64,000 bases of DNA, from the IMG/VR virus record IMGVR_UViG_3300010429_001883, positions 84,473-148,472 of that record; one strand, given 5' to 3'. Numbering within the stretch: position 1 is the first letter of the stretch; the number at the start of each line of letters is the position of its first letter. Of this stretch, positions 18,500 to 36,373 are shown in pieces. The notes below the pieces were generated by a model. That model saw only the letters and a list, made by a program, of their open reading frames with translations, was not told where the DNA came from and did not search any database. Source of the stretch: a virus (lineage: Duplodnaviria; Caudoviricetes). The position numbers and the translations under genes are program-made.

Positions 18500-21400
18500 T
18501 GGCAAAATCCTCGGTTAATGACATTTTTGTAGATATATTCTTAGACTTGGAAGCAAGTTTTGATCCTACGTCTGAACAATCCTATCAAAATTTAAAACAA
18601 TTAAATAAAAGAATTCTTAATTCGAGGGCTACTAAACGAAGCCACCGCGGCATTGTTTCTTCCCAACACAGAGCAGCGCATGTTATTGATTTAGCGTATT
18701 CAACATTTAATTCTAACAAGAAGATAAGTAAGCCGTTAACAAGTTTTATTAAAGAAAGACAGCTTGCTGCCGATCCTAAAAAATTTGTAGGCGATTTCTG
18801 GAAAACCACAGAAGAACCAAGAAAACTTTTGGAAGAGTTGCGGTCATTTGCATCTGGTAAAACAACAGCAACAAAATTTATACAACCCATAGATGCATTA
18901 ACTGAGTTTTTAGAGCATGTTGATGAGCAAGCCAAGTTAGCAGCCAAGGTTGGCAAGAAAGTAAGAATCAGTGGGTGGTCATTACAGTATGATCTATCTG
19001 TACTAATAGGCAATATTGAGGGAATACTTTCTTCTGGAAAGAGAAAAGATCCGGCAATTGCTGCTAAACTGCATAAACTATCTTCTGTATATAATCAATT
19101 TGTTGATCATATTCAACGAAAAACAATTACTACCCACAGCCTAGAAACTGGGTTTTTGAAATACCGCGCCGCCCTGGTTGCTAAGGCATATGAAAAGTAT
19201 GGTCAATCATTTATTTCCAACACTAAACTTAATGAAAGCGCCGTCAAGCATATATCGAATGTTATAAGGAAAGGGGATGCTGCTGCTTTTGATGAATTAA
19301 TAAGTGGTCGAACGGCTAAATTTGGTGGATATAGGGTAGAAGATGTTTTAAGGTTTTTAGATATTTATGGTGGAAAAGAAAAACACCGCGCAGCAATGGA
19401 TGTTTTACAAGAAACAGACATTGCTTTAAGGTTTAGAGATTTTAATCCATTTGTAGACGATCCTTTTGAATATGCTAAAAAGGTTGGTGGTAAGTCTGTT
19501 ACTGCTATAACTGATCAGCAGGTTTTTTATAAACGAGCCATAAAAGAAATTATAGTGCCAGATAGGATGGGACGAGCGGTGGCTGGGGAAGCGGCGGCTG
19601 CGGTTGGGTCAGCCTCTTCACAAATAGTTAAAGGCCAAAGTTCAATTATATCAAGACTTGCTCTAGGTAAAATTTCTTCCAACAAAGCAATAAAGATAGC
19701 TGGCATTGGTGCTCTTGCTGTTGTTGGTTTAGGTGTTGTGCAGAGACTTTGGGATAGTGCTGGCGACGATGATTATTCTAATAAGCATGAAGCTCTAATA
19801 GGAAGTTCACATAAAAAGTTTGGTATTTTTGGTTCTGGTTACCGCGGAGGTAGGAGTGACTATCTAGATCGAAAGATAGAAGAGGCACGCTCTCGTGGAT
19901 CGATGTTTGTTGGTGCTAGCTATGTTGGATTGCCAACAAGAGAGATTAGACAGAAATTAGTTTCTAATATAGTTGCAAATAGCCCATATGGTGGGGCTGG
20001 TGGTTTTGGCGGAAGAAAGAAAAATACAACATATTCAGAAACGGCCGCTGGTTTTGGTACTTTTGCTCACCAAATAGCTCAACGTGAAATGATGGATACC
20101 GGCAGTTACACCGGTAAAACTTTGACGTGGCGACAAAATTTTGCAGATGCGATAATAGGTCGGGATAGAGGAAAGGGAATTACTCCCGAATATAAGGCTG
20201 TTAGCCAAGAAACCGGCATGTATGGCAGTATAGACGTACTGCAAAATGAAGTTATTATTGAACATAAGTTTGTTACAGCTGGAATTTTTGAGACAATTGT
20301 TAGAACTGGAAAACCATTCCCGTCCCATGTGCTCCAGATAAATGCATATATGGGTATGCTTGGTAAACGAAAAGCACAACTAATATACACTAACAGAGAA
20401 AATCTTCAACAGAGAATAGTTTTTGATGTTGATTTTGGTGAAAAAGCATATAAGCAAACTGCTAGAAAAGTAAGAAAAGCCTCTAGGCAGGCAATGCGTG
20501 ATGCATTAGAAATGGGAGTTGATGTTTCTAGTTTGCCTGTTAATGAGGACATTACTGGACAAGAAACACAAATACCTTCAATGGAAGAACTGAAAGAAAG
20601 GTATCCTGTTGAACTCTTCCATGCGTTAACAGTTAGACGCGGTATTCCAACTAATCTTGAAAAATTAAGAGAAGATCGGGACTTAGAACAACAACGTGTT
20701 CGTGCTAGGAAAGGTAATATAATTGAGGGCATGAGACACGGGTGGTTTGGCAGTTCTAGAAAAGATAGAACAGACTTCGGTTCTGGTTTTAGACCAGAAG
20801 ATGAATATGGTACTCCTGATAACGTATGGACATCCAGGGCGGTAGCTGTAGCTGCTGTTGGTGGTTTTGCCTATGGGATGGCAAAACACCCGGTTTGGCT
20901 TTATAATAAAATTAAGAAACTTGAAGATAGAAGTCCTTTACAAATACTTAAAACTTTTCGTTTATCTGAAAGACTTCAGCCTCGTGTTATCAGTGCTCTT
21001 GATAGCAAAGGTAAACAAGTAATCCCAGCATCTGCTTTATTAATACGTGGCGGTTCTGCGATGCGCGGCCGATCTTATGCGTACGCAGATACCTCTCTAA
21101 CAAAACTAGGGATGTTGGTGCAAAATTTACTTGGCGAATTACCAATTGATGAGAAAGGTAATTTAGTTTTTACAAAGGCGGAAGGAAATTTTTATAAAAT
21201 AGCTGTAGGGGGGCAAGAGAAATTTGTCACCTTTGCGTCAGCAAATACTAGGCTAGCCTCTGCGGCGTTTAGATATAATAAGCGAACAGGAGAGAAAGCT
21301 CTTTCTGATTTTGAAGTAGCAGCTACCAAAAGAATGTCAAATATGCCAGAATGGTTTAAAGCTTTTGCTGGCATGCATAACGCTAAGAAAACTAAGACAG

Positions 21401-24400
21401 AAGAGTTAATTTATAAAGCTGGATTACAAATCCAAAAATTAAAATTATCTCAGATAGAACAAAAATTAACGGGTGTTGCTGATGATGCCGTTGCACCAAT
21501 ATATGCTACAACTAAAAGTACGCCAATTTTAAGAACAGCAGATATATTTTTACAAAAATCTAGGCGCGCAGCTCTTGGAGGACTTGAAAGATTTAATAGA
21601 TTGATTGCTGAGTTTGGAGTGGCGTTGCCGGCTGGTTCTTTTAATAGGGTTTTAACGGTTCCATGGAACGACGTAGTAGCTCGTACCCCTGTGGGTAAAA
21701 AACTTGGGATGCAGGTTGGTAGGCGCGGTTTTATAAATCAATTATTAGCTAAAAGGTATTTCCCCATAGCAGCAATTGCTGCGACTGCCGGGCTTTTGGA
21801 TTATGTTACTGGACATACAGTATCAGATATGCCTGTAGAAACATATGCTAATACACAAATAGGCATGTCTACTGTTGCTCGTATGACTGGACTGAATAAA
21901 TATAAAGAACTTATAAATACAATTTCTCCTGTTCCAGATTATGGGATTGCTCTAGCAACACTATCTACAGCAGCGATAGGTTCTCAAATATATGCTAATA
22001 GGCTTGCAGCTTCTAATAATATTGCTCCTGCTTTGTCGCGCCTAGGAGTTACTCAACAATTTTCTACATATGAAAAATTTTCCACCCGTGCTGGACAGGC
22101 TCTTGCCAGTGAATCCTATACGCCTGCTTATCAAACACTGAAGAAAAAGTTGTTAACAAAAAGCCTAAAGGGTGCGGCTTTACTTGCAGCTCCTTTTATT
22201 GCCAGTGCTCTTATACCAGAAGAATCTCCTCAGGAATTAAGAGATATTTATAGTGGCCGACAAGAAATTGAAGTCATGAAAGGGCGATGGTGGGAAACAT
22301 CTTCTACTCCATATGAAGGCGATAAGACTAAAGAATTTCGTCAGCATTTCGTTGCTAGGTTCTTAAATAGGCAATGGATAAAAGATGAATATGGCTCTGA
22401 AGGTGAATATTGGAAAAGAAATTTGGGCACCCCAATTGGGTGGTTTAATTTACTAACCGATCCATATGGCAAAGAAGTAGAAGCTGCGAAAAGAGGACGT
22501 AACTTTCCTTTAACAGAAGAACTATTTTTAGATGTACCTTTTTCTGATATAACCGGCTTAAGATTTATTGGGCATGCGTTAAAGCCACCAAAATTTATGC
22601 ATGCTCGAAGTGTTGAAGATTTTGCTAGGATGTATGAATCAGAGAACCCAGACTTAGAGCCATCCTATGAGCTTGGAGGACTGAAGCCACTGGTTCCTCA
22701 AATGCCGTGGAGCTTAAGGAATATGGCTGCCAGAACTTTTTCTCAATATACAACAGTAGCAGGGTTACCTGGTTTTATAGGAACAACTACGTCCAAAAAA
22801 TTGTTAGGCGAAGAAAATGTTTTTATTGATAAGTATACCCCAACGCTACAGGCAGCCAATGAGATAGGTAATCAAGAACGTTGGTTTTATGGATTAGAAT
22901 TGGGCGGCGCTGCCTTTTTGTCTGAGCCTGTTCGTAGGTACATTCAACGAACACCGCGACAATTTGGTGCTCCCTATAACCCAATACCAAATGATTTGCC
23001 CGACTGGTTATCTGGAAAAAATGAGTTAAAAGATTTAGCAACGGGCGATGCTATAGCAAAAGTTGGATTCAACGCTAGATATTTGCCTCCTAGGGGGGAA
23101 GGCGAGGAGTACAACGAACTACAAAAGGCAGAAGCCTTAGCACATGTGCAGCCCTATAGTAGAAGATTAACTAGGATGTTTTCTGCATTAGATGAAGTCG
23201 CTCTTGAGCCTATGGCTAGATACCGAGTTGAGGAACTGAAGCAACAAGTAAAAGCAATAAAAGAAAGAGAAAAATTTTCTGAAAACACGTTTGCAACGCC
23301 GTTGGCTGGATATAGTGGGACTGTTGAGCAAGTTGAGGGCGAATATTTAAAACTAAAAGAATACCCTTTTAAGGAATTTAAAGTAGGGGGATTTGCTTTA
23401 AATTATTATCAGACGGCAAAGAATTTTATTAGAACTGAAAATATTTCTATACAAAGGGCCGCCATGCGTGCCGCTGAAGTTCAAGAAAAAGCTAGAGAGC
23501 ATATTGAGAAACAGCTTACACCGGGAACTAGAATTGGCTTTGCTGCAGCCGCCGGTGCGCCAGAAAATTTACGTCAAGTTGATATAGCTGTATATACATC
23601 TAATGGCCTTTTAAATAGAGAAGTAAAAGATAAGTATAATTTACCAATAGAGCAAAATAAAGCCATAAGCCAACTTATGTATTCTGCCCCCACTAGGGCA
23701 ATGGGAACAGTGGCTGAATCTATATTTCATGACCCGGCTCTTCCAACAATGGCAAAATTTGCTGGTAAATATACAGCACTAGAAAAATATAAAAAAGAAA
23801 GGGTCTATGGAAAGAAAATAAAACTTTGGGATAACCCAATAGAAAGTTTTATTATGCAACCTGCTTATGGTGCCTCACGTCGATTTGGGTCTGTTGTACC
23901 CTTTAATCCTTTTTCTGGATTTGATGATGAATATAATAGCATAGAGGGTTTGAAGGGGAATGTTCACCAGCAATTTGGAGTATTCGGTAGCGGATTTATA
24001 AATAAACTTGGCAATATAATGGAAACAACCTTATCAAAGATATTGTTTTCTGGTAAGGGGATGTCTCCGCTTGTAAGTAGTGAAAAATATTTATTAATTG
24101 ATGCCGATAAAACATTATTTGGAGGTTTTCTTGACACGGCATTTAACGCTGTTAACAGAGTAAGCCCTAGCATAGCCAGAGATTTATATGCTTCTAGCAC
24201 AGCTCGATTTATTTCTTCTAGAATTCCTGTAACAAAACAAGGAAAAAATGTTTTATCTATGGCTGAAAGAGCCAAAAGTTTTGGTTTTAAACCAATACTT
24301 TTTACCGACAGGCCGATAGAACACGCCAGCTCTACAATAGGGGCACTGAAGCGCTCCGTAGGGGATAAGCGGATTGAAAATTTATTCGAAGGAAGGTATT

Positions 24401-25515
24401 ATTTTGGTGCTGGCAAAAAGCAGTCTTCTGTTTTACCAGAATCTTTTTTAATAGATGACAGAATTACAGAGTATGGTAGTTTAGTTAAAGGAGGGCTACA
24501 CCCAGGAAGTGAAGGTATTGCAACAGCATTCATTAGACAAACTACTCCCTTTGGTTCTGGTTTTGCTTCATCAGATCGATATGTGCCTGTTCCTGGATAC
24601 ACTGAAAACATCAGAAAGTATAATGAATATTTTGATAAATTAGAATACATAAAATGGATAAAACTTGCAAAACAGGCAGAGGAAAAAGGACACGATAGGC
24701 TAATATCTTACTATATGGCGAAAGCTAGGGGCACGATGATTGGTATAAACCCCCTAATAGCAGAACCAGAACAAGTTATGCAGGTTTTACCAAAATCTGA
24801 GCGTCCTTATTTTGCTGCATTCGCTAATGAGCCCAATCCCGAGAAGCGACAGGAAATTATGGAAATGCTTCCTGCATCTCAAAGAAGACTAATGGCTGGG
24901 ACTTGGTTTAGGCAAATGAATCATGCGTCTATGTTGGAGGAAGAAATTCCACAGTATCGGGAGTATGTTCGTAATGAAGGATATATGACAGATGCTGAAA
25001 AACAAGTTATTCCTGGGCTTGCTAAGGTATATGGTGGAGCAGTTGAGCCTGCTGCTCTTGATCGTATGGCAGAAATTTATCAGTTTTTAGATGAAAATAA
25101 TCTTCCACTTCCGAGTGAAAATTGGAAAGGGTGGCAAGCACAAATTGATATGCAAGATCTGAAACTTATGTATTTAAAAAGCATAGGTGAAGATATCCAT
25201 GAATATGATCTGTGGGAAGACCGTGAAAGAATGCTTGCTAGAAAACCATACTTGAAAAACACGCTGGGTGCTTTACGAAACAACTTTAATCCGTCTGGTA
25301 CCATTAGTGTCATGGATGGGATATTAAAAGACAATGGAGTATTAGCTAATAGGTATTCTTCTACACCTACAACTGAGACTAGTTTTACTCTTAACTTTGG
25401 TGTTGATCCTGATACTATGTTATATGATACTGATTTTAATAGAGCAATAGATGATTCAATGAGAAAGACACGGCCAGGCTTTGATAATCTAGACCTTTAT
25501 CTTGGGAGAATGTAG
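18499..25515 (+). CDS. Giant tape-measure-position multidomain protein (DEDDh exonuclease, PD-(D/E)XK nuclease, SNase-like, HAD phosphatase, several membrane-like helices)
   Basis: 2338 aa. DLE/YD/HRAAMD (D16, E18, D165, H296, D301); GSID...IEHK...QINAY (D579, E588, K590, Q613, Y617); GTVEQVEGEY...VYTSNGLLNRE; IDADKTL...FTDR...IDDR (D1868). Basic, Ala/Gly-rich helical core with apolar segments. Confidence 0.75.
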   Translation: MAKSSVNDIFVDIFLDLEASFDPTSEQSYQNLKQLNKRILNSRATKRSHRGIVSSQHRAAHVIDLAYSTFNSNKKISKPLTSFIKERQLAADPKKFVGDFWKTTEEPRKLLEELRSFASGKTTATKFIQPIDALTEFLEHVDEQAKLAAKVGKKVRISGWSLQYDLSVLIGNIEGILSSGKRKDPAIAAKLHKLSSVYNQFVDHIQRKTITTHSLETGFLKYRAALVAKAYEKYGQSFISNTKLNESAVKHISNVIRKGDAAAFDELISGRTAKFGGYRVEDVLRFLDIYGGKEKHRAAMDVLQETDIALRFRDFNPFVDDPFEYAKKVGGKSVTAITDQQVFYKRAIKEIIVPDRMGRAVAGEAAAAVGSASSQIVKGQSSIISRLALGKISSNKAIKIAGIGALAVVGLGVVQRLWDSAGDDDYSNKHEALIGSSHKKFGIFGSGYRGGRSDYLDRKIEEARSRGSMFVGASYVGLPTREIRQKLVSNIVANSPYGGAGGFGGRKKNTTYSETAAGFGTFAHQIAQREMMDTGSYTGKTLTWRQNFADAIIGRDRGKGITPEYKAVSQETGMYGSIDVLQNEVIIEHKFVTAGIFETIVRTGKPFPSHVLQINAYMGMLGKRKAQLIYTNRENLQQRIVFDVDFGEKAYKQTARKVRKASRQAMRDALEMGVDVSSLPVNEDITGQETQIPSMEELKERYPVELFHALTVRRGIPTNLEKLREDRDLEQQRVRARKGNIIEGMRHGWFGSSRKDRTDFGSGFRPEDEYGTPDNVWTSRAVAVAAVGGFAYGMAKHPVWLYNKIKKLEDRSPLQILKTFRLSERLQPRVISALDSKGKQVIPASALLIRGGSAMRGRSYAYADTSLTKLGMLVQNLLGELPIDEKGNLVFTKAEGNFYKIAVGGQEKFVTFASANTRLASAAFRYNKRTGEKALSDFEVAATKRMSNMPEWFKAFAGMHNAKKTKTEELIYKAGLQIQKLKLSQIEQKLTGVADDAVAPIYATTKSTPILRTADIFLQKSRRAALGGLERFNRLIAEFGVALPAGSFNRVLTVPWNDVVARTPVGKKLGMQVGRRGFINQLLAKRYFPIAAIAATAGLLDYVTGHTVSDMPVETYANTQIGMSTVARMTGLNKYKELINTISPVPDYGIALATLSTAAIGSQIYANRLAASNNIAPALSRLGVTQQFSTYEKFSTRAGQALASESYTPAYQTLKKKLLTKSLKGAALLAAPFIASALIPEESPQELRDIYSGRQEIEVMKGRWWETSSTPYEGDKTKEFRQHFVARFLNRQWIKDEYGSEGEYWKRNLGTPIGWFNLLTDPYGKEVEAAKRGRNFPLTEELFLDVPFSDITGLRFIGHALKPPKFMHARSVEDFARMYESENPDLEPSYELGGLKPLVPQMPWSLRNMAARTFSQYTTVAGLPGFIGTTTSKKLLGEENVFIDKYTPTLQAANEIGNQERWFYGLELGGAAFLSEPVRRYIQRTPRQFGAPYNPIPNDLPDWLSGKNELKDLATGDAIAKVGFNARYLPPRGEGEEYNELQKAEALAHVQPYSRRLTRMFSALDEVALEPMARYRVEELKQQVKAIKEREKFSENTFATPLAGYSGTVEQVEGEYLKLKEYPFKEFKVGGFALNYYQTAKNFIRTENISIQRAAMRAAEVQEKAREHIEKQLTPGTRIGFAAAAGAPENLRQVDIAVYTSNGLLNREVKDKYNLPIEQNKAISQLMYSAPTRAMGTVAESIFHDPALPTMAKFAGKYTALEKYKKERVYGKKIKLWDNPIESFIMQPAYGASRRFGSVVPFNPFSGFDDEYNSIEGLKGNVHQQFGVFGSGFINKLGNIMETTLSKILFSGKGMSPLVSSEKYLLIDADKTLFGGFLDTAFNAVNRVSPSIARDLYASSTARFISSRIPVTKQGKNVLSMAERAKSFGFKPILFTDRPIEHASSTIGALKRSVGDKRIENLFEGRYYFGAGKKQSSVLPESFLIDDRITEYGSLVKGGLHPGSEGIATAFIRQTTPFGSGFASSDRYVPVPGYTENIRKYNEYFDKLEYIKWIKLAKQAEEKGHDRLISYYMAKARGTMIGINPLIAEPEQVMQVLPKSERPYFAAFANEPNPEKRQEIMEMLPASQRRLMAGTWFRQMNHASMLEEEIPQYREYVRNEGYMTDAEKQVIPGLAKVYGGAVEPAALDRMAEIYQFLDENNLPLPSENWKGWQAQIDMQDLKLMYLKSIGEDIHEYDLWEDRERMLARKPYLKNTLGALRNNFNPSGTISVMDGILKDNGVLANRYSSTPTTETSFTLNFGVDPDTMLYDTDFNRAIDDSMRKTRPGFDNLDLYLGRM
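19762..19842 (+). repeat. Peptide repeat 1, left type (GDDDY...HKKFGIFGSGY)
   Basis: Precedes the PD-(D/E)XK domain; resembles repeat 3. Confidence 0.65.
20713..20790 (+). repeat. Peptide repeat 2, right type (GNIIEGMRHG...RKDRTDFGSGF)
   Basis: Follows the PD-(D/E)XK domain. Confidence 0.65.
23911..23997 (+). repeat. Peptide repeat 3, left type (FSGFDDEYNSIEGLKGNVHQQFGVFGSGF)
   Basis: Precedes the HAD domain; resembles repeat 1 and shares IEG with repeat 2. Confidence 0.65.
24490..24564 (+). repeat. Peptide repeat 4, right type (GGLHPGSEG...IRQTTPFGSGF)
   Basis: Follows the HAD domain; R-x-x-T-[DP]-FGSGF ending similar to repeat 2. Confidence 0.6.
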
Positions 25516-28500
25516 TGCCAGATTCAAATGAAAAATTAAGAGTTAATGACAGCCGCTCTATTAGTAGCTTTTTAGGTATTGCCGGCGTTGGCGCCGCAGT
25601 ATTTGCTGGTGGTTGGCATTTATTAAATAATGCTGGATTGCGGGAAGCTATGTCTGGTGGTGTTAAGGGTGTTACAAATGTCGATATGAGGGCTGCTGCT
25701 GCTAAGGGGATTTTAAGACAAAGACAGGAAGATTTTATTAGACCTGGGTTTGAGGCGGCATTTGAGGCCAACCAGAAAAAGTTCGCTGAGTTTGGTTCAA
25801 AAGAAACTTTGCATAGGGTTAATAAAGCACTTGATACTGCGCTTAATCCAAAATCTAGTAGAATAGATTACATCTTGAAAAGAAACAAACAAAAGCTTGA
25901 TAAGGCTCGGGAAGATTTAGCCAGAGCAACAACACCAAGAGATAAAGAAAGATTACTGCAACGTGTAGCTGGGAAAGAAAGAATAGAAAAACACTTTATG
26001 TCTAAGGCTAAACAGCTTGTTGTTGACGCTAACGATTCGCTTAATAAAACATTAAAGCCTTACCTGGCTGGTACAGATCTTGGATCATTAAAGAATACTA
26101 AAGAAACATTCTTGGCTGTATATAAATCCTTAGCTAAAACTAATCCCTCAGAGGCGGCGAAGCTATATAACACCGTTAGTATGATGTCAGAAATGGCTGC
26201 CAGCGGAAAAACAATCTCAGCAAATTCAAGAATTGGTAGTAAATTTAAGAAAAGGGGACTAACGGCTGTTTCTAAATCCAGAAGACTTGGATTTTTAGAA
26301 GCCGGCGGATATTTAGAAGGTTTATCTAAGAAACAAGTAAAAGCATTATCTTCCTCGGCAGGTTTCCGTGTATACAGCAGACAAACTGCTGGTGGAGAGA
26401 TGGCTTTTGTTTCATTTGGAACTAGTAATCGGATATGGTCTTTAGGTGAGGCAGGATCTAAGTCCATCTCTTCTGTCTATGAACACGTTGGATCTGGTGG
26501 TGGAATTCTTTCTGGGATGCTGGTTAAGAAAGCTGGTGGTCAGTTTGAAGAGGTTAAAGGGTCTACTTATGTTCTTTCTAAAATAGCAGAAACTGCTGAA
26601 ATGGCCGGCAAGGCAATATCAAAAGAAGATGAAGAAATTTTATCTGCCTTGTATGCACATAGAACGTCTAATACGGCCGCACTTTGGCAGGCCCATGGAA
26701 CTAATTCTCCACTGCGGGGTTTTGCGACAAATAGGGCACTAGTTGAAGAAATGGTTTTGGATCGTGGTTTTATGCATAATACCGAGGCTGTTTCTGAGTT
26801 AAGCTCTAAATTAGCTAATCAAGGGTATGTTCCTGCAGCCGGCGGTAGTGCAATAGAAACAGTTTATAAAATGTTTGGTTTTGATGAAAAAGGACAGAAG
26901 ATAGCTACCGGGCTTGGAGCTGAAACATATAAATTTAATGTATGGGATGAGGCCTCTGGATGGTTGCCCAAAGAAATGAAAATGGCAGACTGGTTAATGC
27001 AACATCACGGTAAATTTAAAGATCAGTTTGAATTGTACAGAGCACACATGAAAATGGATTATTTGGTTAGTTCTGCTGAAGAGGGAGATAAATTTTTTCA
27101 ACCGCTTTCAAAGACACAGGCTAAATTAAGAGTGAACGCTGGGGTTCTAAGTAATAAACAGTTTCAAGATTTTAGAGAACTTAGTGCTCTCGCTCAAGAA
27201 CTTAAAGGCAATGTTAAAAGTTTTAAAGAAACAGATATTTTAGATGCTTTAACAGGGGGTAAAGTTTCTCAAAAGTTACTTAAAAATTTAGGCATAAGTG
27301 AAGGTTCTGTTATAGATAGAACTAAAGCAGCTGCCATAGCCAAACAATTCGCAAAAATGGGACAAGTGGGAGTAGAGGATTTACATTATATAGCTAACAT
27401 TGGTGCTGGACAGGCCCTAGGCTCTAAAGAGTTTATGCAAAGAATTAATTCTATTGAGTTTGCTTCTGTTTTTGATGTTGATGACTTCTCTAGTGATATT
27501 GTGGAAAAAATTAACAGAGCGAAACCAGGAGAAACAATAGAAATTAAAAATCTAAAGCCAGGACAAATATTAGGTAGAAAGGATAATAGAAGTATACGGT
27601 TAGCAAAAGATGGCACGAGAAAATATCGTGCTGAAATTATGAAAACTGAAAAGGGATATAAAGTGATTGCATATGGGCAACATGCTCATAGAGAATATAT
27701 GAGTAAAACAGCTAGATCATTTACTGGTGCAGGTGAAAATTTAGATAGACGTCTTGTGGTAATGGGAGACCTTAGAGGGGGCCTAAGCCACGCTAAAGAA
27801 CTTATGTCTACTATTGGTGGAAAAAAATATCAAGATACTATGGAAGCTGTTACGGCACTTTTGTCCGGTGGGAAAAGTTTAGATTTATTATATGGAGAAG
27901 ATATATTAAGCAACGCTCCAAGCTATGTTAAAACCATGGCAGTTAAGTCTATGGAGCAAACCAAGAAAACAGGTAAATATGTTCCTTTAATGATACAAAG
28001 TTATTTTAGCTTGTGGGCAGCAGGGGCTGCGCATATAGGGTCAAAAGCGAAGGGAGATATCTTACATGCTCAAATGATGCGGAACATGGGGCTTGATTTC
28101 ATGATTCCTAAATATTTTGCTAAGATGACTAGTTTAAATAAGGAAGGATTACAGCTGGCATTGAAAATGACAGAGGCATATCAAACAGGTACGGACGCTG
28201 TTGGTGATTTAATAAAAACACAAGTATCAAATGTAAATGAGTTAAGAGAGGTGCTTGGTAAAGGAATAGCTTCAGAAGAATATGCTGGTGGGTTTAAGTA
28301 TAAATCAAGAAAAGGACTTATTGACGAAGTTAGAAAAATGTACGGAGATACTGATCCAAAAATCTCTAAATTGTTAGATAGTATTAAGGATCAGGAATAT
28401 TATTATATGCCTGGAGCCAGATCCGGCCTTCAAGAGAAAATTGCTGCTGCGGCTAAAGAGGGCGCTGCGTCACAACGGCCGCTTTATTCTACTAAGCTAG

Positions 28501-30464
28501 AGCAGAAAATTATGGATGTGGCAAGAGCAGAAGAATCTTTACAGTTAAGTTTAGAAAAAGGAGACGCGGCGGGAGTTAGGTCGTCTCTTGTTAAATTAAA
28601 GAAAGCACAAAGAGAATACGCCACAACTCCAGGAATTGGTTTAACTGGTAAAAGGTCTATACTTCGTGATTTGGGTCCAACAGAGGGCGGCACGAGGTTT
28701 ACAATTCATTCAAATATAACTGCCAAGCAATTCGAAAGCGTAGCCGAAGTTGGTGAAGTTGGTTTAATTGACCTTGGTTTTAATCAGGAGGAGATAGCAA
28801 AAATAAAAACTGCTGCCAAGAAGGCTGGCGGAGTAACGGATGTATCTGGTGTTTTGTATGGTACCAGATGGCCGATAACTTCTGGTGGTTTTTATAAATT
28901 GAAATTTAATCAAGATATAATGGATAAAACAATTCGTACCACAACCCTTATGGACCAGTTATCTATGATTGATAGAGATAAAGACGCTATGGATGCTGTA
29001 TTTTTTAGAGGTAAGGGATTGGCTGGTGCCGAACTAACGCAGGAACAGATTAAGACAATATTTGAAAGACAAAAGCAATTACTTAAAACTGCTGAGCCAC
29101 TGATGTTTCAGTTTAAGTCTGCGTTTGACTACACAAAGAGCGATGTAAAGGGGATGCCATCTTATTTTAATTCAGCTGGATTTGCTGACCTTTTAAAAGA
29201 CCAAGGAATAACTGATTTTAAAGACGTAAATAAATGGAAAGAAGTTGGAACAATACAAAAACAATATGATGATATGCTGTCCTCTATTACTGGCGGTAAG
29301 GCCGACAAGCAGCTAATGGAAGAATTTACACAATTTGAAACAGATTATGGCCACATGTTTTATAAAAATAAAGATAAAGCTATGAGGAGGCTAAGATCTG
29401 CCGAAGCATTTTCGCATATGAAACTTTTTGAACAAACGTTTGTTCGCAAAATAGGTGGCAAGGGGATTATTCCACAAACAACGAATATGACTAGATTAAT
29501 GGATGTTTTGGCTCAACGTGGCGGAATAACTGAAATGGGGGATAAAGCACGAACACAGATTCAACTGTTGGGTGAGGCTCTTTTCCAATTTCCAATTCAC
29601 TCTCTTAAGCACGCCGACTCGGCGTCGATGTTAAACTTTGCTCAGATGACAGATAGAGCTATGCAAGAACTTAAGAAAGGAAATGTTGATAAATATTTTG
29701 AAGAATTGGGTTCTTCCTCGTTTTTTAGAGAAAAATTAATAAAACCCGATTTATTAAAGAGAAAGGATTTGACCAAAGCCAAAGTAGATGCTATAATGAA
29801 AGACGAAGAACTATATAGGAAGGCATCTAAAGATTACTTTAATAAATATTATTCTGAATTGTCAACAGCTTTGAAAACCGCCGCCGGAGCAGGACCAGAG
29901 GAATTTAATGAAATTGTTCGTGGCGTCGAGGGCTTTTATTCTAAGACAGGGAATTTGGGGTATATGAATAAACGCATGGCAGCTATGGCTGCCCATACGC
30001 TTGTTCCAGAGGAAATTATATCAAAGGCAGGTATGGCGAAAAAAGATGTTGCTTTAGATGTAGCTAAAACAACATTAAAGAAGCATCCTGCTGTTGCTAT
30101 TAGTGTTGGAGGAGGGGTGGCCGCTTTAGCTCTTATAGGGATGTTACAGTCTCCTAGTGATACTTCTCCATTAATTTCTCCAACTGCTGCTGATAAAGAA
30201 GCCATGAGTAAGAAAAGGCCAACATCCCCAGCAGATGCTTTGGGGATGCCAAGAGAACCAAGTTTTTTAGATAATTTGAAAAGAGCCACCGGCGGTCGAT
30301 TTGCTTCCGAAGGAACAGTATCTTATGATACAAACGGCGAACAGCTTGGCAAACAAATACAGCAAAAATTAGGATCAAATGATGTTAAAGTTAACATTAT
30401 GAATCCCTATGATAGTAGAACATCTATACGGACAAGACGCAGAATAAGCGGAGAACAACAATGA
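25515..30464 (+). CDS. Putative single-chain two-barrel (DPBB) RNA polymerase-like virion protein
   Basis: 1649 aa, GTG start. Ordered motifs GAGQALGSKEF, LKPGQILGR, GKSLDLLY (beta-like), then LTGKRSILRDLG, GTRFTI, GEVGL, YGTRWP and IDRDKDAM (beta-prime-like). Hydrophobic helices near both termini. Confidence 0.6.
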   Translation: MPDSNEKLRVNDSRSISSFLGIAGVGAAVFAGGWHLLNNAGLREAMSGGVKGVTNVDMRAAAAKGILRQRQEDFIRPGFEAAFEANQKKFAEFGSKETLHRVNKALDTALNPKSSRIDYILKRNKQKLDKAREDLARATTPRDKERLLQRVAGKERIEKHFMSKAKQLVVDANDSLNKTLKPYLAGTDLGSLKNTKETFLAVYKSLAKTNPSEAAKLYNTVSMMSEMAASGKTISANSRIGSKFKKRGLTAVSKSRRLGFLEAGGYLEGLSKKQVKALSSSAGFRVYSRQTAGGEMAFVSFGTSNRIWSLGEAGSKSISSVYEHVGSGGGILSGMLVKKAGGQFEEVKGSTYVLSKIAETAEMAGKAISKEDEEILSALYAHRTSNTAALWQAHGTNSPLRGFATNRALVEEMVLDRGFMHNTEAVSELSSKLANQGYVPAAGGSAIETVYKMFGFDEKGQKIATGLGAETYKFNVWDEASGWLPKEMKMADWLMQHHGKFKDQFELYRAHMKMDYLVSSAEEGDKFFQPLSKTQAKLRVNAGVLSNKQFQDFRELSALAQELKGNVKSFKETDILDALTGGKVSQKLLKNLGISEGSVIDRTKAAAIAKQFAKMGQVGVEDLHYIANIGAGQALGSKEFMQRINSIEFASVFDVDDFSSDIVEKINRAKPGETIEIKNLKPGQILGRKDNRSIRLAKDGTRKYRAEIMKTEKGYKVIAYGQHAHREYMSKTARSFTGAGENLDRRLVVMGDLRGGLSHAKELMSTIGGKKYQDTMEAVTALLSGGKSLDLLYGEDILSNAPSYVKTMAVKSMEQTKKTGKYVPLMIQSYFSLWAAGAAHIGSKAKGDILHAQMMRNMGLDFMIPKYFAKMTSLNKEGLQLALKMTEAYQTGTDAVGDLIKTQVSNVNELREVLGKGIASEEYAGGFKYKSRKGLIDEVRKMYGDTDPKISKLLDSIKDQEYYYMPGARSGLQEKIAAAAKEGAASQRPLYSTKLEQKIMDVARAEESLQLSLEKGDAAGVRSSLVKLKKAQREYATTPGIGLTGKRSILRDLGPTEGGTRFTIHSNITAKQFESVAEVGEVGLIDLGFNQEEIAKIKTAAKKAGGVTDVSGVLYGTRWPITSGGFYKLKFNQDIMDKTIRTTTLMDQLSMIDRDKDAMDAVFFRGKGLAGAELTQEQIKTIFERQKQLLKTAEPLMFQFKSAFDYTKSDVKGMPSYFNSAGFADLLKDQGITDFKDVNKWKEVGTIQKQYDDMLSSITGGKADKQLMEEFTQFETDYGHMFYKNKDKAMRRLRSAEAFSHMKLFEQTFVRKIGGKGIIPQTTNMTRLMDVLAQRGGITEMGDKARTQIQLLGEALFQFPIHSLKHADSASMLNFAQMTDRAMQELKKGNVDKYFEELGSSSFFREKLIKPDLLKRKDLTKAKVDAIMKDEELYRKASKDYFNKYYSELSTALKTAAGAGPEEFNEIVRGVEGFYSKTGNLGYMNKRMAAMAAHTLVPEEIISKAGMAKKDVALDVAKTTLKKHPAVAISVGGGVAALALIGMLQSPSDTSPLISPTAADKEAMSKKRPTSPADALGMPREPSFLDNLKRATGGRFASEGTVSYDTNGEQLGKQIQQKLGSNDVKVNIMNPYDSRTSIRTRRRISGEQQ

Positions 30465-33400
30465 AGGATAATGACGTATTAGCATTTAAATCTTTAGACC
30501 ATCCAGCTCAGTCGGAGTTTACAATTGGTTACATTAAATTAGAAGTACCTCCCTCTGATATACATGTCACTAAAAGTACCAATTCTATGTTTTTGGGGGC
30601 TTTAAGAAGTCCTGCTGATACGCCATTTAAAACCGGATATTCAAATTGGGATATAACAGTTCGTATGCAGTTTTATGGTGAAGAAGAAATTGCTTCCAAG
30701 CTTCTTCCAATTGTTGGGATGTGTAAAGTTGCTCCCATTGTAAATGTAAATAATTTGACAATAAAAGAGCAGCTTTTTGGGCATTTGGCAGGAACTTTAG
30801 GTGCTTCTACTGCTGTGGATGATTTAGACTTTTTAGGAACTCTTAATTACTATTATTCAAAAGATAACACTATTTCTGTTATTATTGAAGGAATGTCAAT
30901 AAATGTTATGTCTCAATATGGCGGGCTGTGTCTAGATGTTAATTTATATTTGAAATATTATAATCACCATGCAGTCAGTCCTTATTTTAGAATTAATGAA
31001 GAAAAACTCAAGGGAAGAGTTGACAGATGGATACAACAAGCTAAATTAAATTATGATACGCACGTTAATGCTATAAAAAATTTTAAAGTTAATTTAAATT
31101 CTGATAATGAATTTATGGTGGTTGGTAGATATTTTCATGCTATCTCTACTGGTGGTGTATCCTTTGGAACTCTTATAGAGCTTTTAAAATCAATGGCTGT
31201 GCCAGAAAAAGATAGAGCAGATGCAATTAATGATATATTAGAGAAAGATAAATATAAGAGAGATCTCTATAATAAAAAAATGGAAGAGCTGGAAAAAACG
31301 TTACAAGAAGCACAAGCTAAGGAACGTGCCAGCCAACAAACTAAACCTGATCCCCAAAAAGAGGGAGCAAGCAGTAAAATAAAATTAGGGTGGCCTTTAA
31401 AACAACATACAATTGTACATGATTGGGGAGAATCTGGACATACGATTACCAGATCTAATCCAACAGGAGTCCATGAGGGAGTTGATTTGAGGGCTGCACA
31501 AAGAACACCGGTATTCGCAGCTGAATCAGGAAAGGTTGTAACGGCTTCTGAAGATACTCAGTATAGTGGTGGTTTAGTTGTTATATCTCATGAAGGTGGA
31601 ATTACAACACACTATGCACACTTAAGTCAAGTGTGGGTCAGAGTTGGTATGAAGGTGGAAAAGGGACAGCAAATAGGAGAATCTGGGGGTACGCCAGGAA
31701 CAAAGGGCGCGGGTTCTTCGAGTGGACCGCACCTACATTTTGCTGTTAAGGAAAAAGGCAAGCCAGTTGACCCAAAATTATATTTAGATTTAAATGATAA
31801 TTATAAAAACATTCGTCCAATAGCAGCCGGAGCACAGACGCCTGAAATAAATATTGGTAAAACGCCGTATCAAGAAATAAGAGATTCAGAGCAGCTAAGG
31901 GCAGCAGCCGAAGATATAAAAAATAAGTTAGAAGACGGATGGACAGTTGATATAATGAAAACGGACGAAAACTACATAGTCTTTTTTAAAGAATTTGGTA
32001 TTCCGTTTTTTAAAGATTTCAATATTTCTAGTTATATGGATTATGATATACAGGGGTTTAAACTTGTTGATACAAGAGCAAGAATAATTCTTAACAGTAT
32101 AGGCATATCATTAAAAAATAAATTTGTTCCTATTCCTATTGCCGGGTACCCAATGCCGTTTTATCAGCATTTGGGCGGATGTAATGTTTCTGTTGGTGTG
32201 GGGGGCTTGGCACTAGTTGATGAGAAGACTGGAACATGTACTCCGCTATCTAATTTACAGGCCTTATATAACTTGAAAGAAGTTCAATTCTTAGCTTTGC
32301 GTGGTAAAATTGATTACACGCCTGGTTCTAATTATGATATACAAGGAGTAAGAATACTTAATAAACCGCTGGGTCTTCTTGGTCTTGTTAATTTTGTTAT
32401 CTCTGATTTGGCTGTTGGTACAGTACCTGACACGCCGAACGCTATGAATGTTAATTTAAACATGTTTGAGAACTATGTCTATGATAATACAATTTATAAT
32501 GATTCAGGTAATATTAGTATTTTTCAGGACTATATTTTACCAGATTTAATAGTTGATGAACTTAAAAAATTAGGCCCAATAGAGGCAAAGAACCTTGGGC
32601 CGGAAACATTTAAGCTATACTTACAAATACAAGTTTGGGACAAGTTTGAAAGAGATAATCCCAACTATATGAAGAATATAAATAACGATGCCAAATTGGT
32701 TGAAGCCACTAAGAAAACTATAGAAGGTTGGGCCAACGTAGAAAAACTAAACAGCCTTTTGCCTGCTGGTGGTTTAGAGGATTATCAGAAATTAATGGGT
32801 GGGAGTTTTTTACACGGATCGATTGTCCAGACGCTTGTGTGGATGACTTCTATGGGCGTTCCAGGTACAGGGACTGTCGCAGCAGGACCAATTCCATCTT
32901 TACCGTTGCTTTTTGCTAAGCCAGTTACAGAAATAATTGATGTATACTTTATGCCATCTATTAAGCAAGCAAGCTGGATGGAGCATGCACAAACAAGGCG
33001 AGAGTATATTCAAGATTTTTACACAAAAAATTGTGATAAAGATCCATTTTTGATCTGGATAAGGGATAAAATCAATCGTGGCGAGTATACGCACGAACTC
33101 AAGAATAGATTTAATTTTGATATGGATGCATTGACAAGGACGTGTTATCCAGATCTTTTATTACAGAGGGGAGAAGACCCTGGTGCATATATAGATTCTG
33201 GGCTAGAACCAGACCCAGAACAGATGAGTCAATTATGTGCAGAATCGGTTGTCGTTTCTAACGCCGCCATTCAAAATATAAAAGAACATTATTCTGGTTT
33301 ACTTCGGTATAAAACAGTAGAATTAAGTTATGCGGAGGGGGCAGAAGACAAGGGTCAGGGTGTTTTAAATAAACCAGAGACAGAGCCTTTGAAGCATTCT

Positions 33401-36373
33401 AGTTCAGACGGCCCATATGAAACCAATGCCTCATCCTATATTAATTTAATGACGGCTGTTGATACAAACGGCGGTACTCATCTAGTTGTTGATCAATTTA
33501 CATACGATACAAGTTTTCCTACTTTTAAGATATATTTAATAGAAGACGTAGCTGCTGACGATTCTTCGGAGTTTCTGGGGTTAAAACAAGTAGAGTGGGA
33601 TAAGTTTTACAGTTACTCCGCTGTTACTGAAATTGAGGTAGCTAGGTTTAAGCATGATGTAGATGTTGCAGTTATTAAATTCTTAAATACGTTTGGTAAT
33701 TTAACAACAAAAATTTATGGAGCAGATGTTTATTTAACGCAAGAATTTAGTAGAGACGTTATTGAAAAAGATTTTGAAAATAGATACAGACTGCAACGAA
33801 TGGATAATGGAACACTTGTCCAAATGGATAGGTTTACAAACGAATTGATGCCTATAACTAAAATGTTTTTACAGGCAGGAACAAAAATACTTATTAAACT
33901 AGGATACCATAATTTAGAACATAAATTGCCAACAGTATTTACAGGGCTGGTTACAGAGGTGCAGCCAGGGGAAATAGTTACTGTTGTATGCCAGGGATTT
34001 TTAAGTGAACTTTTGGCTCCATTAGATGGTAGGTTTCCCTCTAGCTTTGGTGGGAAAATTAGACAGTTGCTTGGTTTGGACGCTACAAGTTCCGGGTTAA
34101 TGGAAGATGCGTCCACCTATTTAGCGCACAATGCGGAGCTTATGACTTATTATGGTCAAAAAATATATGAAGATCCGACATACGCTGCCAGGCTATTTAA
34201 TGTAGTTAATCATTATAATTCACTTACGTCACTTTATGATAGATTTATGGGAAAATCGCAGCCAACCGCTTCTGGTAAAATGGGGGGACAGGGCATTGAT
34301 CCAAGACTTAGAAAAATACATAGAGCTGTCCACCTAAACAACGCCTGTACGGCAGTTATAGTACAGAAATTGTTGGAACATCCTGCAGCTATACACTTTG
34401 GTGGGTGGTACCTAACTAATTCTGGAATGGATGGGTCAGCTACAATGTTTGGTGGATTTTTTGATGTGTGGATAGGACAGAGCAATAGATCAATAGAAAA
34501 CATTGATCCTGTTTTATTAAGTGCGTGGCAGAAGGACAATAACTTATTAGCGATTTATCCGACTTTTCCTACTTTTTATGTTAATGATAAGAATATGTCC
34601 ACAGTTTGGGAAACAATAAGAGAACTTGGATATAGACATCCAACACATATTACGACAGTACGTCCATATGGTACCAATGCTTCTCTTATAATGAAAGAAA
34701 GGACCGATACATACAAAACATCTGGTTTAAGTTTTTATGGAAACACTAGAACTGAAATTGTTCAAACTAATATTTTTGCTAAGTTTTTGAACGAAGAATA
34801 CAATATAAAAACTTTTACTGATGACATGTTTAAAATTTATCATGGTGCCACATTTGATAATTTCAATAATTATGTTGCAATAACAGCGGAAACAAAGAAA
34901 GCCATACAAGACTATATTTTGTACTATGGCAAGCCCACTAAGCAACAAATTTATTATGTTTCCGCAGATAAAGTAATGGCAAAAAATGAAATATATTTTG
35001 AAGAGTCTTTGCCTGCTGGTACCGTTTTTGTGAAACCATCGGATATTTGGACGGTGGCTTTACAAATGGGGAAGTTAGAATTTTTTAAGCTTTTTTTGCC
35101 TGCCGATATGTATCTTGTTTTGGCTGATAAATTTACTAATTTTAAAGCTAAACAAGCAAAAATAGATCCAGTACTTGGGCCACAGCTTTCAGTTGAAAGA
35201 GAAGTAGAACCAGTAACAATGCCACACTATGTTAGCGATAAAGTTAATATGGTTTTTAATAATATAAGAACTAATGAAAACATATTTAATGCTGTTCTTA
35301 TAAAGAAAGATGTAGAAGACATAGCATTAGAAAGTATGATTGCCTTAGATGACAATATTTTAGATTCTCATAAAAAGGTGTTTAATTATACAAGTAAAAA
35401 CATACAAGCAAATGCTGAAGACATGGATGCTAGAAAATTTAATGATTTGCAGGCACTATATGGATTTTCTATTTTAATGGAAAAACTTGCACAAATGTAT
35501 AAAGGCGAGTTAGCTATGGTAGGTAATCCAAACATACGTCCATTTGATACCATAGTTTTGGATGATGCTCAATCGCAACTTTATGGGTCTTTCGAAGTAG
35601 CCTCTGTGATCCACAGGTTTACACAAGATGAAGGTTTCGTAACTTTTGTTGAGCCACACCTCATATCAAATGTTTCCAATTATGCCCTGGCGGCTGCACA
35701 GGGTAGAATAGAGGATATGGTAAGAGAGGGTAATAAACAATCTAGATTTTTACGATCAAGAGAAGAAAGAAATATATATTCCTCTAGTGAGACGGCTAGA
35801 GAATTTATGAAAACAAACCCCAACGCTAGTGGTGATTTTATAACATCAACAGGCAGCAATGCATCTCAGTTGCTGTTAAAATATTTTGCTGCAGGAACTA
35901 CGGGTGGTTTGTCTGGTCTAATAGCAAGCACAGAAATGGGTAGAAGTTTTTTTGATGATGAGGGGGCTAAGGGGGCTGAGATAGGTGCTTATATTGGCAT
36001 GTATCAGGCTGCAGATGCCTATGTACTAGGAGATTGGATTAGCGCCGCATCGAAAGCAAGAAGTCTGCCTATGTTCATGTTTAGTAGATTTTTTCCTAGC
36101 TGGGCATCAACGTTATCTAACTACATGTATCATGCCGGGCCATATAGACAGCCTATTGTTATCAAGCCGTTAACATTAAGATCTGTTCCATTTATAGCTG
36201 GAATAAAGGGGGCTGTATTTAATAGTTGGTTCGATAGCGCAACTATGGGGCTTTCAAGAGCAATAAAAGCGTTACCGGAAGAATTTGTGGCGTTAAATAA
36301 AGGACTTCGTAGTATGATTAGGGCATACAACCATACAATTGGATCTAAATTTAAGTTCTTGAGGTTTAATTAA
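30461..36373 (+). CDS. Large baseplate hub protein with an internal M23 (LytM) peptidoglycan endopeptidase
   Basis: 1970 aa. M23 at about 31388-31786: HEGVD (HxxxD), THYAHL, GPHLHF (HxH), VDP. Hub-like motifs IKLGY...LPTVFTGLVTEV and YKGELAMVGNPNIRPFD...FEVASVIHRF..DEGFVT. Confidence 0.8.
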   Translation: MKDNDVLAFKSLDHPAQSEFTIGYIKLEVPPSDIHVTKSTNSMFLGALRSPADTPFKTGYSNWDITVRMQFYGEEEIASKLLPIVGMCKVAPIVNVNNLTIKEQLFGHLAGTLGASTAVDDLDFLGTLNYYYSKDNTISVIIEGMSINVMSQYGGLCLDVNLYLKYYNHHAVSPYFRINEEKLKGRVDRWIQQAKLNYDTHVNAIKNFKVNLNSDNEFMVVGRYFHAISTGGVSFGTLIELLKSMAVPEKDRADAINDILEKDKYKRDLYNKKMEELEKTLQEAQAKERASQQTKPDPQKEGASSKIKLGWPLKQHTIVHDWGESGHTITRSNPTGVHEGVDLRAAQRTPVFAAESGKVVTASEDTQYSGGLVVISHEGGITTHYAHLSQVWVRVGMKVEKGQQIGESGGTPGTKGAGSSSGPHLHFAVKEKGKPVDPKLYLDLNDNYKNIRPIAAGAQTPEINIGKTPYQEIRDSEQLRAAAEDIKNKLEDGWTVDIMKTDENYIVFFKEFGIPFFKDFNISSYMDYDIQGFKLVDTRARIILNSIGISLKNKFVPIPIAGYPMPFYQHLGGCNVSVGVGGLALVDEKTGTCTPLSNLQALYNLKEVQFLALRGKIDYTPGSNYDIQGVRILNKPLGLLGLVNFVISDLAVGTVPDTPNAMNVNLNMFENYVYDNTIYNDSGNISIFQDYILPDLIVDELKKLGPIEAKNLGPETFKLYLQIQVWDKFERDNPNYMKNINNDAKLVEATKKTIEGWANVEKLNSLLPAGGLEDYQKLMGGSFLHGSIVQTLVWMTSMGVPGTGTVAAGPIPSLPLLFAKPVTEIIDVYFMPSIKQASWMEHAQTRREYIQDFYTKNCDKDPFLIWIRDKINRGEYTHELKNRFNFDMDALTRTCYPDLLLQRGEDPGAYIDSGLEPDPEQMSQLCAESVVVSNAAIQNIKEHYSGLLRYKTVELSYAEGAEDKGQGVLNKPETEPLKHSSSDGPYETNASSYINLMTAVDTNGGTHLVVDQFTYDTSFPTFKIYLIEDVAADDSSEFLGLKQVEWDKFYSYSAVTEIEVARFKHDVDVAVIKFLNTFGNLTTKIYGADVYLTQEFSRDVIEKDFENRYRLQRMDNGTLVQMDRFTNELMPITKMFLQAGTKILIKLGYHNLEHKLPTVFTGLVTEVQPGEIVTVVCQGFLSELLAPLDGRFPSSFGGKIRQLLGLDATSSGLMEDASTYLAHNAELMTYYGQKIYEDPTYAARLFNVVNHYNSLTSLYDRFMGKSQPTASGKMGGQGIDPRLRKIHRAVHLNNACTAVIVQKLLEHPAAIHFGGWYLTNSGMDGSATMFGGFFDVWIGQSNRSIENIDPVLLSAWQKDNNLLAIYPTFPTFYVNDKNMSTVWETIRELGYRHPTHITTVRPYGTNASLIMKERTDTYKTSGLSFYGNTRTEIVQTNIFAKFLNEEYNIKTFTDDMFKIYHGATFDNFNNYVAITAETKKAIQDYILYYGKPTKQQIYYVSADKVMAKNEIYFEESLPAGTVFVKPSDIWTVALQMGKLEFFKLFLPADMYLVLADKFTNFKAKQAKIDPVLGPQLSVEREVEPVTMPHYVSDKVNMVFNNIRTNENIFNAVLIKKDVEDIALESMIALDDNILDSHKKVFNYTSKNIQANAEDMDARKFNDLQALYGFSILMEKLAQMYKGELAMVGNPNIRPFDTIVLDDAQSQLYGSFEVASVIHRFTQDEGFVTFVEPHLISNVSNYALAAAQGRIEDMVREGNKQSRFLRSREERNIYSSSETAREFMKTNPNASGDFITSTGSNASQLLLKYFAAGTTGGLSGLIASTEMGRSFFDDEGAKGAEIGAYIGMYQAADAYVLGDWISAASKARSLPMFMFSRFFPSWASTLSNYMYHAGPYRQPIVIKPLTLRSVPFIAGIKGAVFNSWFDSATMGLSRAIKALPEEFVALNKGLRSMIRAYNHTIGSKFKFLRFN

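Follow-up and report, generated by a model that had tools for sequence, protein, structure and literature searches.

A predicted beta-prime-type RNA polymerase module in the tape-measure-position protein of a contractile-tailed phage

The giant ORF and its conserved motifs

The protein described here, 1649 residues long, is encoded by a contractile-tailed phage whose genome is 148 kb or more. The window analysed is the last 64 kb (positions 84,473 to 148,472) of a 148,472-bp viral contig, IMG/VR record IMGVR_UViG_3300010429_001883, which is classed as linear with a CheckV completeness of 78; coordinates refer to this window unless the genome or another locus is named. Residues ~990-1370 of the protein are predicted to form a very diverged beta-prime-type module of a two-barrel RNA polymerase (RNAP). 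Its open reading frame (ORF) is the middle one of three giant genes (2338, 1649 and 1970 amino acids), which overlap at their stop and start codons:

18499..25515, plus strand: upstream giant gene, 2338 amino acids, by synteny the counterpart of the gene for the ORF145 virion protein of phage 0305phi8-36
25515..30464, plus strand: RNAP-like giant ORF, 1649 amino acids, GTG start, TGA stop
30461..36373, plus strand: downstream giant gene, 1970 amino acids, with an M23 peptidase domain at residues 337-438

The GTG start shares one nucleotide with the TAG stop of the preceding gene and is backed by a homologue (P0003) with the same first residues, while the TGA stop overlaps the ATG of the next gene. 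The triad is conserved as well as translationally coupled. It surrounds the homologues in all five loci (5/5), where the third gene carries a GH108 lysozyme domain, not M23.

The initial annotation had quoted eight strings from this ORF as RNAP-like, and all eight lie in it at the positions given. The beta-prime-like strings are LTGKRSILRDLG at 28641 (residue 1043), GTRFTI at 28689, GEVGL at 28752 and YGTRWP at 28857 (R1118 at 28866), together with IDRDKDAMDAV at 28968, in which D1153, D1155 and D1157 occupy 28971-28985. The strings compared with the beta subunit are GAGQALGSKEF at 27402, LKPGQILGR at 27552 and GKSLDLLY at 27870. As had been proposed, the Arg and the first Asp are 35 residues apart both here (R1118-D1153) and in E. 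coli beta-prime (R425-D460, read from the E. coli locus), and the loop differs from DFDGD by Phe-to-Arg and Gly-to-Lys changes with all three Asp kept. DxDxD by itself arises in 20% of shuffles of the 1649-residue protein. Since RxP followed by DxDxD 28-42 residues on arises in just 0.36% of them, the beta-prime-like motif set exceeds chance.

When 1.84 billion representative proteins were scanned exhaustively with HMMER, the search returned, besides the protein's own cluster, four distant relatives only, with 26-30% identity over the matched stretches, and a word-indexed search added one more with 55% identity. No further homologues were found by word-indexed search with the sub-alignment, in IMG/VR or in JGI metagenome contigs. 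The resulting alignment of six sequences, in which the close relative is 55% identical to the query and the others 20-22%, underlies all statements on conservation of this protein. It has 53 invariant columns, which include K1046, R1118, P1120, T1122, D1153, D1155 and D1157 and, further downstream, R1327, Q1358, P1360, I1361, K1365 and H1366. The R-x-P motif and the three Asp, on whose conservation in homologues the initial proposal depended, are thus invariant. Each homologue has one DxDxD, always 35 residues past RxP with no insertion or deletion between the two, and the loop reads DFDKD or DRDND where the query has DRDKD. The distant homologues, with GYRDPITH...ADFDKDRM or MDRDND, are nearer to the canonical NRAPTLH...NADFDGDQM than the query is. 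The conserved loop and the features of the two termini are:

28971..28985, plus strand: Asp triad DRDKD, candidate metal-binding site, with invariant D1153, D1155 and D1157
25557..25625, plus strand: N-terminal apolar segment, residues ~15-37, from a hydropathy scan; hydrophobic there in all homologues
30084..30152, plus strand: C-terminal transmembrane-like segment, residues ~1524-1546, with a hydropathy maximum of 2.18 and a conserved HPAVA...GMLQSP block
30423..30461, plus strand: extreme C-terminus, with S1637, R1639, T1640, R1642 and R1643 invariant

Apolar segments at both ends had been noted from the start; they are present in the hydropathy scan and conserved in the alignment. The conserved last 13 residues may possibly be an assembly or anchoring signal of the kind seen at tape-measure C-termini. 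In the tape-measure gene of 0305phi8-36, the last 60 residues alone aligned with its relative (PMC2147016). Together, the apolar segments and the last 13 residues fit a role in the tape-measure position.

Predicted fold of the beta-prime-like module

The AlphaFold2 model of residues 830-1400 (m99e392cfd389), built from the six-sequence alignment, has a mean predicted local distance difference test (pLDDT) score of 62. Its beta-rich domain at residues 1056-1164 reaches pLDDT 71-91, and the order strand-strand-helix-helix-strand-strand-strand-strand fits a double-psi beta-barrel. An independent AlphaFold2 model of residues 600-1180 (m0bb693e4475a) is poor overall, with a mean pLDDT of 51 and a predicted template modelling (TM) score of 0.30, and repeats the same barrel at pLDDT 70-89; neither another barrel nor any packing shows in it. 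In the two models the predicted barrel spans residues ~1055-1167 and holds the Asp of the candidate metal-binding loop between its last two strands. A double-psi beta-barrel carrying the Asp loop, which the initial annotation had anticipated, is therefore present in both. The elements of the predicted module are:

28497..28625, plus strand: helical hairpin, residues ~995-1037 (helices 166-185 and 189-208 of model m99e392cfd389), just before the barrel
28641..29009, plus strand: predicted beta-prime-type double-psi beta-barrel, residues 1043-1165, with GK(1046)..LR, G-T-R(1061)-F-T-I, GEVGL, R1118-W-P1120-I-T1122 and D1153-R-D1155-K-D1157
29376..29519, plus strand: bridge-helix candidate, a long helix at residues 1288-1335 (model helix 459-506), with IPQTTNMTRLMDV and invariant R1327
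29568..29618, plus strand: trigger-loop candidate LGEALFQFPIHSLKH, with invariant Q1358, P1360, I1361, K1365 and H1366

In a Foldseek search of the whole PDB, the best 50 matches for each model are all largest subunits of RNAPs, with a best E-value of 1e-4 and a probability of up to 1.0, and they span bacterial, cyanobacterial, plastid, archaeal, Pol II, AR9 and phiKZ enzymes. The BFVD search returned RNAP subunits of giant viruses and jumbo phages, along with a small number of giant phage proteins that are uncharacterised. Beta-prime families (PF00623 with PF04983/PF04998) fill the first two rows of the ESM-Atlas shape search, aligned over 328-336 residues with a TM-score of 0.40-0.42 by query, and LEF-9 comes next.

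The fold match reaches over ~250-330 residues in the ESM-Atlas shape search and in the VIA alignments, taking in the bridge-helix-like and trigger-loop-like segments. The VIA rows begin at model residue 164, which corresponds to E. coli beta-prime residue 263 (6alg_J, 6oul_J); the helical hairpin stands in the place of the beta-prime clamp coiled-coil. They stop at model residue 534 (1363 in the full-length protein) opposite beta-prime residue 932 (6wmu_D), or, for 8jo2_D, at model residue 544 opposite the same residue. Within this range, IPQTTNMTRLMDV (residue 1319) resembles the bridge-helix segment TANSGYLTRRLVDV of E. coli beta-prime (residue 790), a match made by eye, and LGEALFQFPIHSLKH (residue 1352) resembles the trigger-loop segment GEPGTQLTMRTFH (residue 924). 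The fold alignment and both motif resemblances concur within a few residues, and the bridge-helix-like and trigger-loop-like resemblances are suggestive.

This similarity lies below the reach of the sequence-level searches. The protein has no Pfam match and none among PDB sequences, a set that includes 8H2M, by phmmer and profile search, and PHROGs as well as tblastn and megablast against 50,697 phage records gave nothing useful. It does not reach the PF00623 gathering score of canonical RpoC/Rpb1 family members; PF00623 found no match in the whole genome at E-values up to 10 and matched 14 of 14 control genomes. An hhalign comparison of the protein family with a proteobacterial RpoC profile (Neff 1.4) returned nothing useful, and nothing came of the same comparison with two candidate YonO-like ORFs of the same genome. 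RpoC loci collected from genome contigs were all at least 84% identical to E. coli and too uniform to help. The profile hidden Markov model (HMM) of the family has no significant match in the polymerase region to ME3 gp036, 0305phi8-36 gp145-147 or the Moorella phage proteins, and ESM-Atlas feature searches gave only tape-measure look-alikes below threshold. By their conserved motifs and predicted structure, the six proteins make up a new family, extremely diverged, whose beta-prime-like polymerase modules lie in tail-internal proteins of contractile-tailed phages.

Tail-gene setting, the second barrel and possible roles

Portal, major head and tail-sheath genes lie 5' of the triad, and baseplate wedge and other structural genes lie 3' of it. 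The only database relatives of the sheath are those of Acinetobacter phage ME3, Moorella phage MTATph1 and Bacillus phage 0305phi8-36, which share the layout of sheath, tube, chaperone and triad. The 1649-residue ORF follows the sheath, tube and chaperone-like genes and precedes the hub/hydrolase gene, which is the slot of 0305phi8-36 ORF146. That ORF is the assigned, 'hypothetical' tape measure, and its product was detected in the virion by mass spectrometry, an indirect sign that the present protein may be packaged; ORF147 is a gp27-like hub with wall hydrolases (PMC2147016). The downstream giant gene is the counterpart of this hub/cell-wall-hydrolase gene (ORF147, ME3 gp037), and its M23 domain matches Pfam PF01551 with an E-value of 2.8e-28; the gene has PHROG matches as well. 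The initial annotation had placed the protein between a tape-measure-like gene and the hub. Because the ORF145/146/147 synteny sets it opposite ORF146, the protein itself occupies the tape-measure position, the tape-measure role as such being putative.

Transposase genes stand directly after or inside the triad in two related phages, one like IS605 OrfB/TnpB (L001:21539-22567) and one annotated as a transposase in MTATph1 (L091:34065-35552). Elsewhere in the window, 48756-51677 encodes a 973-residue family-A-like DNA polymerase (PHROG 17, E-value 2e-98) with HNH-endonuclease matches at residues ~436-529; their location in the middle of the polymerase suggests an inserted homing-endonuclease or intein-like element.

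The upstream giant protein matches PHROG 1706 (E-value 1.7e-12) and has a nuclease-like stretch at residues 507-662. Its core (residues ~1240-1560) holds dozens of invariant residues, for example RWWE.S.TPY.GD, and is 32-41% identical among homologues, against ~21% for the RNAP-like protein; no similarity to beta subunits or to anything in PDB or Pfam was found for it. Inteins usually occupy functionally critical sites. Two homologues of the upstream protein (gene loci L001:3387-10001 and L004:3-7568 were used in this comparison) carry LAGLIDADG inteins in conserved sites, after RWWE (residue 1266) and after W.GW (residue 2212), and one homologue has an N-terminal 3'-5' exonuclease domain. This pattern in the sequences suggests an enzyme that may be delivered with the tail.

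For the RNAP-like chain, the initial annotation had suggested that both barrels of the polymerase lie in one polypeptide. Two further stretches bear on this proposal:

27438..27683, plus strand: small beta-rich domain, residues 642-723, from the strands of model m0bb693e4475a (fragment residues 43-124, pLDDT 52-71), containing LKPGQILG
28287..28430, plus strand: candidate beta-like barrel remnant, invariant G926-x-K928-Y929-x-S931 and then Y964 in YYxPG 36 residues on, in a region of pLDDT below 50

The small domain, which is covered by none of the fold-search rows listed, may belong to a second barrel or form a flap-like insert. In pattern and spacing, G926-x-K928...YYxPG recalls G1063-D-K1065...PVDIVLNP of E. 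coli beta. Among the three beta-like strings first put forward, LKPGQILGR retains an invariant G687, while GAGQALGSKEF and GKSLDLLY are not conserved in distant homologues. No beta-subunit chain is among the fold-search matches listed, and with the second barrel not found, the upstream region poorly modelled and two of the three strings lost, the claim is not borne out. Two barrels in one chain are unproven because a single Lys is invariant and the Arg that would correspond to PSRM is not conserved.

It is nevertheless probable, by a modest measure, that the 1649-residue protein is a virion polymerase, built into the tail, expelled on contraction, held at the envelope and transcribing the DNA that enters first. 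With an RNAP-like catalytic core in its tape-measure-position protein, the phage probably injects a polymerase of its own at the start of infection. The polymerase and its two giant neighbours would be put together inside the tail, and contraction of the sheath would expel the polymerase; its apolar segments would hold it at the envelope while the M23-bearing neighbour opens the wall. From there it would transcribe the phage genes that enter first, independently of the host polymerase, as P23-45 gp96 does. The second barrel would probably come from residues ~640-990 of the same chain. This rests on conserved motifs, on the predicted fold and its similarity to that of RNAP largest subunits, and on synteny; from these we infer catalysis, where the second barrel comes from, packaging in the virion, ejection and which early genes are targeted. 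Several observations pull the other way. The second, beta-like barrel appears in neither AlphaFold2 model, residues 724-1055 having a pLDDT below 50; the candidate remnant keeps just one invariant Lys and lacks a conserved Arg to match PSRM; and the alignment has six sequences only, with model confidence moderate to low outside the barrel.

The missing barrel also speaks for two competing readings. One of them, which is unlikely on balance, makes the ORF the beta-prime-like half of a heteromeric polymerase; the beta-like barrel would come from a second virion protein, for which the core of the upstream giant protein is the most plausible source. That arrangement would mirror both the order of beta and then beta-prime in operons of cells and the phiKZ-type virion polymerases, whose subunits are split, and the upstream gene is translationally coupled, always adjacent, better conserved in its core and, in two homologues, invaded by inteins at its conserved RWWE-xSxTPY and WxGW sites. 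However, that core has no detectable similarity to beta subunits, and the RNAP-like chain has more than 1000 residues before its own barrel, in which the conserved G926-x-K928 could hold another. The other competitor, for which the odds are similarly poor, sees an exapted module that aids DNA binding or translocation to draw the genome in, synthesises primers or short RNAs, or acts as a structural plug, with no transcription of early genes. Besides the absent barrel, it can draw on the non-canonical DRDKD/DFDKD/DRDND loops, on the same-position proteins of related phages that lack the triad of Asp and on the presence in the genome of at least one candidate non-virion polymerase (GDFDGD). Against exaptation, the Asp triad, RxP, the GK...R strand, R1327, Q1358, P1360, K1365 and H1366 are invariant at ~21% identity, an active-site-like invariance and therefore the pattern expected of a working site rather than a relic; moreover, a non-virion polymerase gene needs an earlier transcriber, as in P23-45 (PMC10770324).

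A cell-wall barrel of the RlpA/MltA/expansin type, which cleaves or binds glycans and would be plausible tail-protein cargo, with the Asp acting on peptidoglycan, would also be a double-psi beta-barrel, but it is very improbable: the best 50 Foldseek matches of both models are exclusively RNAP largest subunits, the match extends well beyond the barrel, the RxP-35-DxDxD and GK..R...R..I motifs are RNAP-specific, no Pfam match to RlpA, 3D or lytic transglycosylase families is found, and the next gene already carries a wall hydrolase. Chance resemblance in an ordinary helical tape-measure protein might be argued from the frequency of DxDxD in shuffles and from the lack of HMM-level similarity to RNAPs. 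This is effectively refuted by conservation, shuffles and fold searches, that is, by a motif set and spacing invariant across distant homologues, the rarity of RxP...DxDxD, a confident barrel in two models and top lists from three libraries that hold RNAPs only.

Outside the window, the genome has two further long minus-strand ORFs, one of 1146 amino acids at genome 14298-17738 (L006) with a single GDFDGD and one of 1117 amino acids at genome 29575-32928 (L007). Neither has relatives in Pfam, PHROG, PDB, phage or protein databases; the GDFDGD of the first makes it possible that the two are non-virion single-chain polymerases. A 16-nt motif, CA[ATG][GA]AAAAGAGAA[AT]A, occurs in 8 copies (10 counting the core) at genome 17.8-28.8 kb (L092:3846-14763), all in one orientation in an 11-kb block between the two ~1100-residue ORFs and nowhere else in the genome. 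Where the context was read, copies lie shortly 5' of the ribosome-binding site of a minus-strand gene, most of them after a GC-rich hairpin, and the motif is a candidate phage-specific terminator-promoter unit. In P23-45, the virion enzyme fused to the tape measure has promoters of its own, which it uses within a short pre-early block, and the gene of the non-virion polymerase belongs to that block (PMC10770324); the motif block flanked by candidate polymerase ORFs parallels that layout. A bolder scheme is conceivable but doubtful: either a cascade of three polymerases without host RNAP, in which the injected enzyme would be followed by two YonO-like enzymes, or a catalytic centre formed from two giant tail proteins. 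The latter, if true, would be a new heteromeric architecture for virion polymerases.

Comparison with related phages and known polymerases

Within the tail-module lineage, the same slot is occupied by different proteins. Since neither 0305phi8-36 gp146 (L090:13624-21234) nor MTATph1 CDS0027 (L091:30039-33965) has DxDxD, the lineage has acquired or lost the polymerase-like module, which is not universal in this position. ME3 gp036 (L089:11173-15981, 1603 amino acids), in the same position of the triad, has one DxDxD, in GGDHDQDQAAV at residue 1217, 43 residues after SREP, and apolar segments at both its N- and C-terminal ends. The second-best BFVD match (E-value 2e-5) is an unnamed ME3 protein whose C-terminal half matches the model; judged by protein length it is probably gp036, which makes gp036 a candidate polymerase of this kind from a cultured phage. 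The BFVD list also includes Microcystis phage MaMV-DC and a 'minor tail protein' of an uncultured siphovirus.

Two-barrel virion RNAPs occur in crAss-like podoviruses, in phiKZ-type jumbo phages, where they are multisubunit and located in the head, and in one Thermus siphovirus. To our knowledge, a polymerase in a tape-measure gene was known before only from that long-tailed Thermus phage, and no description was found in the papers searched of a polymerase module in the tape-measure-position genes of the present lineage. If the protein is active, tail-delivered two-barrel polymerases are also found in contractile-tailed phages, which would suggest that the strategy is old or has evolved repeatedly, and the known polymerase families would gain an extremely diverged one (DRDKD/DFDKD/DRDND), undetected by any sequence model. 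The passage of a polymerase with a clamp-like hairpin through the tail tube then becomes a mechanical question. For 'hypothetical' giant tail proteins, RxP, 35 residues and DxDxD in a tape-measure-position gene provide a search image, of which ME3 gp036 is a candidate case.

RpoC beta-prime (PF00623/PF04983/PF04998), which gives the best Foldseek and Atlas matches, shares with the module, in the same order, the coiled-coil hairpin, the GK..R / S(T)xRxxI strand motifs, RxP, the 35-residue gap, DxDxD and, on the suggestive matches, the long helix and a GE...Q...H-type loop. Unlike RpoC, the module has no HMM match, is much shorter, carries the Phe-to-Arg and Gly-to-Lys loop changes and lies within a tail protein that has membrane segments, with no partner beta, alpha or omega known. 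The YonO and 0305phi8-36 gp99-type enzymes are single-chain two-barrel phage polymerases of an RdRP-like clade (PMC2147016, PMC7824862). In contrast to the 1649-residue protein, they are non-virion enzymes of ~800-1200 residues and are not tail proteins. The 0305phi8-36 lineage, which is kin to the present tail module, encodes such a gp99-type enzyme, and the 1146-residue GDFDGD ORF may be one as well. In phi14:2, a crAss-like phage, gp66 is a giant single-chain two-barrel virion RNAP with a DFDxD-type loop (PDB 6VR4), encoded among tail or ejection genes and presumed to be ejected so as to transcribe early genes (bioRxiv 10.1101/2020.03.07.982082). Its virion is podovirus-like and both its barrels are resolved in one chain; gp66 is absent among the fold-search matches listed.

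Among known systems, P23-45 gp96, the virion RNAP that a Thermus siphovirus carries fused to its tape measure (PMC10770324; PDB 8H2M/8H2N), comes closest, and owing to it a two-barrel polymerase in a tape-measure gene is already on record (2024). No sequence homology to gp96 or gp64 was found by phmmer and profile searches of PDB sequences, and in the structural comparison with gp96 the barrel alone aligns. No second barrel was found in the present protein, and its loop reads DRDKD, or DFDKD in homologues, in place of the DFDGD of gp96. Whereas gp96 belongs to a phage with a long non-contractile tail, is clamp-less and carries its polymerase module at the N-terminal end, the protein described here belongs to a contractile tail, has a clamp-like helical hairpin and carries the module in its C-terminal half (~990-1370 of 1649), with the function spread over three giant genes.

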